A stretch of 64,000 nucleotides of DNA, from assembly GCF_016026235.1 (NCBI RefSeq), contig NZ_CP065613.1, one strand, 5' to 3'. This DNA is from Escherichia coli (GTDB taxonomy: Bacteria > Pseudomonadota > Gammaproteobacteria > Enterobacterales > Enterobacteriaceae). The position numbers were made by a program. Each line of letters starts with the position of its first letter. Position 1 is the stretch's first letter. This document shows, piece by piece, positions 36,001-39,000 of this stretch.

Positions 36001-39000
36001 AATATCCGCCACCCGCTCGCGCAGTGGTGGCAATTGCAGACGCAAAATACTCAGCCGATAAAACAGATCACGGCGAAAACGTCCTTGCCGCATATCTTCT
36101 TCCAGATTGCAGTGAGTGGCGCTAATGACCCGTACATCTACCGGAACAGGCTGATGCCCGCCGACGCGGGTGACCTCTTTTTCTTCCAGCACCCGCAGCA
36201 GCCGGGTCTGCAACGGCAGCGGCATTTCGCCTATCTCGTCAAGAAACAGCGTGCCACCGTGGGCAATTTCGAACAGCCCGGCGCGACCTCCGCGTCGCGA
36301 GCCGGTAAACGCCCCTTCCTCATAGCCAAACAGTTCTGCTTCCAGCAGCGATTCGGCTATCGCCCCGCAGTTGACGGCAACAAACGGATGCGACTTTTTG
36401 CCCTGTCGCGCATCGTGGCGGGCAAAATATTCCCGATGAATCGCCTGGGCCGCCAGCTCTTTACCCGTCCCCGTTTCCCCCTCAATCAACACCGCTGCAC
36501 TGGAGCGGGCATACAGCAAAATAGTCTGCCGTACTTGTTGCATCTGTGGTGATTGACCGAGCATATCGCCCAGCACGTAACGAGTTCTCAGGGCGTTGCG
36601 GGTGGCATCGTGAGTGTTATGGCGTAACGACATGCGCGTCATATCCAGCGCATCGCTGAACGCCTGGCGCACGGTGGCGGCGGAATAGATAAAAATTCCG
36701 GTCATTCCGGCTTCTTCTGCCAAATCGGTAATCAGCCCTGCGCCGACCACCGCTTCGGTGCCGTTAGCTTTTAGCTCGTTAATCTGCCCGCGTGCGTCTT
36801 CCTCGGTAATGTAGCTACGTTGGTCGAGGCGCAAATTAAAGGTTTTTTGAAACGCCACCAGCGCTGGAATGGTTTCCTGATAGGTGACAACGCCGATAGA
36901 AGAGGTGAGTTTTCCGGCTTTTGCCAGTGCCTGTAACACATCGTAGCCGCTCGGTTTAATCAAAATAACTGGCACTGACAGGCGGCTTTTCAGGTACGCG
37001 CCGTTAGAGCCAGCAGCGATGATGGCGTCACAGCGTTCGTTTGCCAGTTTCTTGCGGATGTAGGTCACTGCTTTTTCAAAGCCAAGCTGAATAGGGGTAA
37101 TGTTCGCCAGGTGATCAAACTCGAGGCTGATATCGCGAAACAGCTCGAACAGGCGCGTTACAGATACCGTCCAGATAACCGGTTTGTCGTCATTAAGCCG
37201 TGGTGGATGTGCCATAGCGCACCGCAAAGTTAAGAAACCGAATATTGGGTTTAGTCTTGTTTCATAATTGTTGCAATGAAACGCGGTGAAACATTGCCTG
37301 AAACGTTAACTGAAACGCATATTTGCGGATTAGTTCATGACGTTATCTCTAACAAATTGAAATTAAACATTTAATTTTATTAAGGCAATTGTGGCACACC
37401 CCTTGCTTTGTTTTATTAACGAAAATAACAAGTTGATAACAAAGGATGGGCTATGTCTCTACACTCTCCAGGTAAAGCGTTTCGCGCTGCACTGACTAAA
37501 GAAAATCCATTGCAGATTGTTGGCACCATCAACGCTAATCATGCGCTGTTGGCGCAGCGTGCCGGATATCAGGCAATTTATCTCTCCGGCGGTGGCGTGG
37601 CGGCAGGGTCGCTGGGGCTGCCCGATCTCGGTATTTCTACTCTTGATGACGTGCTGACAGATATTCGCCGTATCACCGACGTTTGTTCGCTGCCGCTGCT
37701 GGTGGATGCGGATATCGGTTTTGGTTCTTCTGCTTTTAACGTTGCGCGTACGGTGAAATCGATGATTAAAGCCGGTGCGGCGGGATTGCATATTGAAGAT
37801 CAGGTTGGTGCAAAACGCTGTGGTCATCGCCCGAACAAAGCGATCGTCTCGAAAGAGGAGATGGTGGATCGGATCCGCGCGGCGGTGGATGCGAAAACCG
37901 ATCCTGATTTTGTGATCATGGCGCGCACCGATGCGCTGGCGGTTGAAGGACTGGATGCGGCGATCGAGCGTGCGCAGGCCTATGTTGAAGCTGGTGCCGA
38001 GATGTTGTTCCCGGAGGCGATTACCGAACTCGCCATGTACCGCCAGTTTGCCGATGCGGTGCAGGTGCCGATCCTCGCCAATATTACCGAATTTGGCGCA
38101 ACGCCGCTGTTTACCACCGACGAATTACGCAGCGCCCATGTCGCAATGGCGCTGTACCCGCTTTCAGCGTTCCGCGCCATGAACCGCGCCGCTGAACATG
38201 TCTACAACGTCCTGCGTCAGGAAGGCACGCAGAAAAGTGTCATCGACACCATGCAGACCCGCAACGAGCTGTACGAAAGCATCAACTACTACCAGTACGA
38301 AGAGAAGCTCGACGATCTGTTTGCCCGTAGCCAGGTGAAATAAAAAACGCCCGTTGGTTGTATTCGACAACCGATGCCTGATGCGCCGCTGACGCGACTT
38401 ATCAGGCCTACGGGTGTACTGAACTGTAGGTCGGATAAGACGCATGGCGTCGCATCCGACAACAATCCCGACCCTACAAATGATAACAATGACGAGGACA
38501 ACATGAGCGACACAACGATCCTGCAAAACAGTACCCATGTCATTAAACCGAAAAAATCTGTGGCGCTTTCTGGCGTTTCGGCGGGCAATACGGCGCTCTG
38601 CACCGTGGGTAAAAGTGGCAATGACTTGCATTACCGTAGTTACGATATTCTTGATCTGGCGGAACATTGCGAATTTGAAGAAGTGGCGCATCTGCTGATC
38701 CACGGCAAACTGCCGACCCGTGACGAACTCGCCGCTTACAAAACGAAACTGAAAGCCCTGCGCGGTTTACCGGCTAATGTGCGTACTGTGCTGGAAGCCT
38801 TACCGGCGGCGTCGCACCCGATGGATGTTATGCGCACCGGCGTTTCCGCGCTCGGCTGCACGCTGCCAGAAAAAGAGGGGCATACCGTCTCCGGCGCGCG
38901 GGATATTGCCGACAAACTGTTGGCGTCGCTGAGCTCGATTCTTCTCTACTGGTATCACTACAGCCATAACGGCGAACGCATCCAGCCGGAAACCGATGAC

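Follow-up and report, generated by a model that had tools for sequence, protein, structure and literature searches.

A converging array of TGAAAC half-sites in the divergent prpR–prpB control region of Escherichia coli

We found that the 237-bp intergenic region between the divergent genes prpR and prpB of Escherichia coli (positions 37216-37452 of the window, that is, of the whole 64-kb stretch of chromosomal DNA analysed) contains six half-sites, five exact copies of TGAAAC/GTTTCA and one GTTGCA. They lie 7–12 bp apart, two pointing one way and four the other. We are highly confident in the standard sigma-54 enhancer-binding account of this region, according to which PrpR, bound to the array of half-sites, drives prpBCDE through a -24/-12 promoter. 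The locus is the well-studied and already known divergent control region of prpR and prpBCDE, and our results leave the understanding of sigma-54 regulation unchanged; the only value they add lies in the converging array of six half-sites, in its Escherichia-specific remodelling and in the absence from E. coli of the consensus quoted for PrpR.

The prpR–prpB region occurs at 100% identity in several complete genomes, and was found in 5219 of 5426 complete genomes. NCBIfam equivalog models bear out both flanking genes named in the first-pass annotation, and identify prpC, then prpD, downstream of prpB. The left boundary proposed earlier, 37228, derives from the end of a TTG-extended prpR open reading frame and was abandoned: the RefSeq-annotated prpR start is the ATG at 37215, and the intergenic region therefore begins at 37216. 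The Pfam domains of near-identical proteins give PrpR a PrpR_N sensor, an AAA+ domain and a C-terminal HTH_8, and sequence motifs of the AAA+ domain include Walker A (ETGTGKE) and a GAFTGS loop. The RefSeq label for the K-12 PrpR is 'dual regulator'. The features of the locus, with the evidence for each in brackets, are:

35629-37215, minus strand: prpR, sigma-54-dependent activator (NCBIfam equivalogs NF011953 and TIGR02329, RefSeq start, Pfam domains, sequence motifs)
37259-37264, plus strand: hexamer 1, GTTTCA, left palindrome arm, -159 to -154 (identical in all 10 enteric sequences)
37270-37275, plus strand: hexamer 2, GTTGCA, a 5/6 match to GTTTCA (identity 0.97 across enterics)
37277-37282, plus strand: hexamer 3, TGAAAC, right palindrome arm, -141 to -136 (identity 0.90 across enterics)
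37287-37292, plus strand: extra TGAAAC, Escherichia-specific, within the variable N10 spacer (enteric alignment)
37293-37298, plus strand: ATTGCC, degenerate remnant of hexamer 4 (enteric alignment, block identity 0.60)
37299-37304, plus strand: hexamer 5, TGAAAC, -119 to -114, right half of the ancestral consensus dyad (identity 0.97)
37311-37316, plus strand: hexamer 6, TGAAAC, -107 to -102 (identity 0.91; TGACAC in other enteric genera)
37317-37391, no strand: A+T-rich (73%) spacer of 75 bp, presumed IHF-bent loop (identity 0.52 between genera)
37392-37406, plus strand: sigma-54 promoter PprpB, -24 TGGCAC and -12 TTGC (single match in the window, conserved in orthologues)
37409-37452, plus strand: prpB leader with the conserved block ...ATAACAAGTTGATAACAA... 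(enteric alignment, identity 0.76)
37453-38343, plus strand: prpB, methylisocitrate lyase, first gene of prpBCDE (NCBIfam NF008455 and TIGR02317)

The first-pass annotation had described a palindrome, GTTTCAT-N10-ATGAAAC, followed by three further copies of TGAAAC. All these elements are present, the palindrome at 37259-37282 and the copies at 37287-92, 37299-304 and 37311-16; the palindrome is probably not a unit, and is better read as part of the array of six hexamers. Hexamer 2 sits inside the 'spacer' of the palindrome, where it makes, with the TGAAAC at 37277-82, a near-dyad GTTGCA-A-TGAAAC. The 58 bp from 37259 to 37316 hold five exact copies of TGAAAC/GTTTCA versus 0.044 expected from the window's own frequency of these hexamers (Poisson P = 1.4e-9). 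Elsewhere in the window, clusters reach at most 2 per 60 bp, and the maximum across 300 Markov-simulated windows was 3; given this maximum and the Poisson probability, we rejected chance as the cause of the cluster. Among the perfect inverted repeats in the window with 7-bp arms, 10 have a loop of 10 nt; with loops of 0-20 nt there are 163. The N10 palindrome alone is compatible with chance, and it is the cluster of hexamers that is unusual.

The copies starting at 37277, 37287, 37299 and 37311 are direct repeats at roughly one-helical-turn spacing, and TRF reports a 12-bp tandem period over 37287-37317. Counted from the inferred start site near 37418, the hexamers occupy -159 to -102; all six thus form a repeated motif in the zone expected of an enhancer, about 80-200 bp upstream of the -24/-12 promoter.

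We compared 21 PrpR loci, ranging from Escherichia to Oxalobacteraceae. The enteric loci were from E. albertii, E. marmotae, two other Escherichia lineages, Salmonella (a record from a plasmid collection), three Citrobacter species and Kluyvera; the others were from two Photorhabdus species, Morganella, several Oxalobacteraceae and Burkholderiales, Xanthomonas massiliensis and Caballeronia. A scan of contigs with the pattern FLDEIGEM returned mostly generic AAA+ matches, about 14 of 80 loci being true PrpR orthologues, and a homologue search gave chiefly E. coli variants and no Salmonella. When 6-mers were counted without a prior motif in the 200 bp adjoining prpR of 16 non-redundant loci, GTTTCA/TGAAAC ranked first by count (47 versus 1.7 expected, 28-fold) and was present in 13 of the 16 loci; the overlapping GAAACA/TGTTTC was present in 14 of the 16, and GTTGCA/TGCAAC was enriched in the same upstream regions (12 versus 1.4 expected). 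In 44 of the 47 instances a purine directly follows the hexamer, and the half-site can therefore be written TGAAACR.

The orientation of the hexamers is the same in every multi-hexamer locus, GTTTCA copies being nearer to prpR and TGAAAC copies nearer to prpB, with the inward-facing contiguous dyad GTTTCATGAAAC of Salmonella and Citrobacter as the sole exception. Where prpB or another prp gene follows, TGGCAY-N5-TTGC is found 48-205 bp downstream of the arrays. Converging arrays together with TGGCA were seen in Escherichia, Salmonella, Citrobacter, Kluyvera, Photorhabdus, Morganella, Rugamonas, Herbaspirillum and two Burkholderiales MAGs, and LGISRTT(L/F)WR(R/K)L, the recognition helix, hardly varies among these PrpR orthologues. 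The hexamers, then, co-occur with PrpR and with the -24/-12 promoter across two proteobacterial classes. The earlier suggestion that the repeats are a PrpR enhancer gains support from these results, as the hexamer is the top 6-mer near PrpR orthologues and is also the half-site of the footprint-derived Salmonella consensus.

We aligned 10 enteric sequences and expressed conservation as the mean pairwise identity per block. The conserved layout is GTTTCA-TAAWT-GTTGCA-A-TGAAAC-N10-[GTTTCA]TGAAAC-GTTARC-TGAMAC, with identities of 1.00, 0.97, 0.90, 0.97 and 0.91 for hexamers 1, 2, 3, 5 and 6, respectively; the identity is 0.50 in the N10 spacer, 0.60 at the bracketed position of hexamer 4 and 0.52 in the A+T-rich spacer. 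Salmonella and Citrobacter have GTTTCA at hexamer 4, which gives the dyad GTTTCATGAAAC, whereas in all Escherichia this left half is replaced by ATTGCC, ATTGTC or AGTGTC. The TGAAAC at 37287 is found in E. coli, E. marmotae and Escherichia sp., reads TGAAAT in E. albertii, and is absent from Salmonella, Citrobacter and Kluyvera in this alignment. Within E. coli, 4320 of 5220 records carry the 73-bp block of repeats at 100% identity, and one sampled variant has ATTGAC at the degenerate position (a change at 37297). The adjoining 73-bp stretch of A+T-rich spacer is identical in 373 E. coli records, and in about 1300 it is too diverged to be detected.

The enhancer consensus of Salmonella PrpR, derived from footprinting, is CGTTTCATGAAACG (Palacios & Escalante-Semerena 2004, as quoted in PMC4987338), and is built from the same two hexamers as the E. 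coli array. No match to this 14-bp sequence with fewer than three mismatches was found in the E. coli region; the best matches, at 37292-305 and 37304-317, have three mismatches, and their frequency is at chance level. Only the TGAAACG half of the consensus is intact in E. coli. Its constituent half-site, TGAAAC(G)/(C)GTTTCA, is present there in five exact copies, three of which are TGAAACG. The lack of a close 14-mer match in E. coli follows from the loss of the left half of the dyad in Escherichia and the gain of TGAAAC at 37287. The searchable literature yielded no footprint made with E. coli PrpR on the species' own DNA. A scan with the CGTTTCATGAAACG consensus would miss the E. coli enhancer, and it is this Salmonella-derived consensus that reviews quote.

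The prpR-prpBCDE locus of Salmonella enterica has the same genes in the same divergent layout as that of E. coli. The -24/-12 elements are orthologous (TGGCATAGCCTTTGC versus TGGCACACCCCTTGC), and both arrays contain the left part GTTTCA-TAAWT-GTTGCA-A-TGAAAC and the right part TGAAAC-GTTARC-TGAMAC. However, Salmonella has the contiguous dyad CGTTTCATGAAACG, the left half of which is ATTGCC in Escherichia, and the extra TGAAAC of E. coli at 37287 lies 6 bp further left than the Salmonella dyad half, in the opposite orientation. The A+T-rich spacer is also about 25 bp shorter in E. coli (75 versus 100 bp). When used in E. coli, the Salmonella prp system was reported to be about 3-fold stronger (PMC5566544).

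More widely, the region resembles the upstream activating sequences of bacterial enhancer-binding proteins (bEBPs) such as NtrC at glnAp2, NorR, PspF and XylR/DmpR: it shares with them several activator sites some 100-160 bp ahead of a -24/-12 promoter, a bendable or IHF-binding region in between, and an adjacent, divergent activator gene. It differs in that classical bEBP sites are discrete dimer dyads, while the E. coli array consists mostly of direct repeats of one half-site. The PrpR site of Xanthomonas citri, GTTGCAA-N2-TTGCAAC (PMC12153269), has the half-site GTTGCA, which is one base from GTTTCA and is hexamer 2 in all enteric arrays. Binding of X. citri PrpR tolerated spacing changes of 2 bp either way (PMC12153269), which fits the variable spacing of hexamers across PrpR arrays. 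X. citri PrpR, however, was reported to be a repressor with a single dyad, induction being PrpR-independent (PMC12153269).

The sigma-54 promoter noted in the first-pass annotation is where it had been placed, TGGCAC-N5-TTGC starting at 37392, although it ends at 37406, one base short of the 37407 given originally. It is the sole match to this pattern within the 64-kb window, and its GG and GC dinucleotides are exactly 10 bp apart. The longer TGGCACACCCCTTGCT (37392-37407), 46 bp ahead of the prpB ATG, matches the TGGCAC-N5-TTGCW consensus. TGGCAY-N5-TTGC is conserved in 15 orthologous loci, and the mean pairwise identity of the promoter is 0.86 in the 10-sequence enteric alignment. The prpB start site, at about 37418, was deduced from the position of the -12 GC. 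Positions 37392-37409 align with the Salmonella prpB sigma-54 ChIP-chip site TGGCATAGCCTTTGCTTT; at this orthologous site the sigma-54 ChIP-chip ratio was 11, and wild type was 45-fold over an rpoN deletion. Genomic SELEX with the RpoN holoenzyme likewise gave a peak in the K-12 prpR/prpB spacer.

According to PMC5566544, expression of prpBCDE requires PrpR, sigma-54 and IHF and is under CRP control, the IHF requirement coming from Salmonella genetics. In the A+T-rich spacer the best candidate for an IHF core is TTTCAATTTGTTA, on the minus strand at 37350-37362 (8/9). Matches of 8/9 to the IHF core WATCAANNNNTTR occur at 37350-62 and 37361-76, but 51 of 200 shuffled sequences scored as well; as far as the sequence goes, the IHF site is a candidate only. 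Most enterics have a WAACA...ATTA-like match 46-48 bp upstream of the TGGCA start, and two Oxalobacteraceae orthologues have perfect IHF cores 24 bp upstream of it (1 of 200 shuffles). A perfect IHF core is also found on the minus strand at 37426-38, inside the prpB leader, which carries a Shine-Dalgarno AGGA at 37443-46. A hairpin in this 5' leader was no more stable than shuffles (z = -0.94) and is not kept in Salmonella, and we dropped the reading of the leader as an RNA structure; a search of 37000-37700 against Rfam gave no RNA family.

It is possible that GTTTCAT-N10-ATGAAAC is the primary site for one PrpR dimer and that the three downstream TGAAAC copies are auxiliary, but this is less likely than the array, and we give it a rather low probability. 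Within the intergenic region, conservation across all 10 enteric sequences is highest in the 24-bp block TGTTTCATAAWTGTTGCAATGAAAC, where the N12 between the outer hexamers of the palindrome is invariant; a Salmonella study reportedly describes two sites with dyad symmetry, of which the palindrome could be one. The N12 spacing, however, is absent outside Enterobacteriaceae, the hexamers of Photorhabdus, Morganella and Oxalobacteraceae being 6-11 bp apart, and half-site centres separated by 18 bp would be far apart for an HTH dimer of the Fis type. The palindrome, moreover, has the conserved GTTGCA in its spacer, and GTTGCA-A-TGAAAC is much closer to the geometry of the published contiguous consensus, while palindromes of the N10, 7-bp-arm type arise 10 times in the window by chance. 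Because GTTGCA is conserved in the spacer, the 37287 copy is Escherichia-specific and the contiguous consensus palindrome is absent in E. coli, the N10 palindrome itself is probably not the binding unit and probably a by-product of the array. Besides binding PrpR, the conserved block might carry the CRP site and the core of the divergent prpR promoter, which would account for the conservation of the bases between hexamers too; this we consider conceivable, though on balance doubtful. The prpR-prpBCDE spacer is described as having one putative CRP site that controls both promoters (PMC5566544) and is said in the literature to overlap the PrpR operator, and the RefSeq name of 'dual regulator' for K-12 PrpR also counts for such a role. 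With just 44 bp between hexamer 1 and the ATG of prpR, the promoter of this gene must overlap the array. Against this, the best match of the region to TGTGA-N6-TCACA is 6/10, which about 1.8% of the positions in the window attain. A sigma-70 consensus scan for the prpR promoter passed no candidate, and a relaxed scan gave only one of 7/12. The published mutation of the CRP site also abolished regulation by PrpR, and therefore does not separate CRP from PrpR.

Much less probable, and in our view very unlikely, is that the TGAAAC repeats are Cra (FruR) boxes and that the region is under this catabolite repressor/activator. TGAAAC is indeed the conserved left half of the Cra box, and CCTGAAACGTTAAC (37297-37310) agrees by eye with most of the degenerate Cra pattern, but nothing in the region matches the Cra pattern GCTGAAWCGWTTCAGC within three mismatches. 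PMC5829826 cites a 'known' Cra site among the regulatory sequences of prpB, yet the same study did not detect Cra binding to prpB DNA by EMSA, and prp does not appear in the main text of the ChIP-exo study on E. coli Cra. In addition, it is PrpR, not Cra, that the hexamer arrays accompany into Betaproteobacteria.

Under the standard enhancer-binding account, the C-terminal HTH of PrpR would recognize the heptamer TGAAACR, each hexamer possibly being a separate HTH contact. A two-fold symmetric HTH dimer is not expected on direct repeats, so that such a hexamer-by-hexamer model needs flexible DNA-binding domains or degenerate partner half-sites. 2-methylcitrate, formed from propionate via PrpE and PrpC, would bind the N-terminal domain of PrpR; the activating signal is given as 2-methylcitrate in PMC4987338, which quotes Palacios & Escalante-Semerena 2004. 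PrpR bound to the array would then assemble as an active AAA+ oligomer (ring), and the A+T-rich spacer would loop, with IHF assisting. PrpR may thereby remodel the closed complex of sigma-54 RNA polymerase at 37392-37406, leading to transcription of prpBCDE. The PPrp part of a biosensor built in E. coli Nissle is the K-12 counterpart of window positions 37254-37439 (186 bp; PMC9452892), and its first base lies 5 bp ahead of hexamer 1. When PrpR was supplied in trans, from a synthetic promoter at another place on the plasmid, propionate induced expression from this fragment 59-fold (PMC9452892).

The prpR-prpB region underlies the widely used pPro propionate-inducible vectors and gut propionate biosensors, and it is therefore of practical value to know which of its bases contact PrpR. 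If the 'spacer' of the palindrome is trimmed or mutated in a design, a real half-site, GTTGCA, could be lost.

We tentatively propose, as a more specific idea that is rather unlikely to be right, that the enhancer is a phased, converging set of some six TGAAACR half-sites, each serving one protomer of the active PrpR hexamer, rather than a set of dyads, and that Escherichia has remodelled the array while keeping its function at reduced strength. If the proposal is true, Escherichia would have lost the left half of the dyad and gained a same-face half-site at 37287, and the reduced strength of its remodelled array would explain why the Salmonella system is the stronger of the two.

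We compared the segments of the prpR-prpB intergenic region within E. coli. The A+T-rich spacer between the array of PrpR half-sites and the sigma-54 promoter (37317-37389) is hypervariable, as it is identical to the window in 373 of 5220 E. coli records and too diverged for megablast in about 1300, while the enhancer and the promoter on either side of it are nearly fixed within the species. Two further elements lie near the outer ends of the region:

37235-37252, in the stretch from the prpR start codon to hexamer 1 of the half-site array: near-perfect 18-bp palindrome, AAACCGAATATTGGGTTT
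37409-37445, in the prpB leader: conserved block with an ATYAAC-N11-GTTGAT palindrome and two ATAACAA repeats

The leader block is almost unchanged in Escherichia, Citrobacter and Kluyvera, whereas Salmonella differs; relative to K-12, the window allele carries a C to T change at 37417 and a 1-bp deletion. Inside the block, downstream of the sigma-54 promoter, there is a perfect IHF core, TATCAACTTGTTA (minus strand, 37426-37438). Kluyvera and Citrobacter keep part of the palindrome near the prpR start. This palindrome may be an operator, or it may form part of the promoter or leader of prpR.

Further into the operon, the mechanical call of prpC (432 aa, starting at 38374) probably makes the ORF too long, because its NCBIfam match begins only at residue 57 and orthologues have 389 aa. 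With a shorter prpC, prpB and prpC would therefore lie about 159 bp apart (38344-38502). On the other side, the sigma-54 contact loop of PrpR (residues 301-306; prpR, 35629-37215) has the sequence GAFTGS, where GAFTGA is canonical.

An Escherichia-like lineage (Logan ERR3985422), whose PrpR is 89% identical, has mutations in three of the six hexamers (GTTACA, TGGATC and TGAAAA); the enhancer may be decaying there, or the changes may be noise from the assembly. The Salmonella Bredeney record CP082688.1 (pN18S0406-2), a linear sequence of 238 kb labelled as a plasmid, carries the chromosomal genes prpRBC, yahO and foxA, and is probably a mislabelled chromosomal contig.

In two Massilia loci (L009 and L011), prpR is divergent not from prpB but from a gene for a small membrane protein, which we judged from its translation to be YjcH/DUF485-like. 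A GTTTCA-N3-TGAAAC dyad is present at both, and a pattern search of these loci did not find TGGCAY-N5-TTGC. PrpR-like genes were also seen in Janthinobacterium (L010 and L012; 59-60% identity over the full length, with no adjoining prpB) and in Caballeronia (L091; 48% identity over the AAA+/HTH part). Upstream of these three genes there are few or no canonical hexamers; it is possible that they are paralogues, or that their recognition sequence has diverged.
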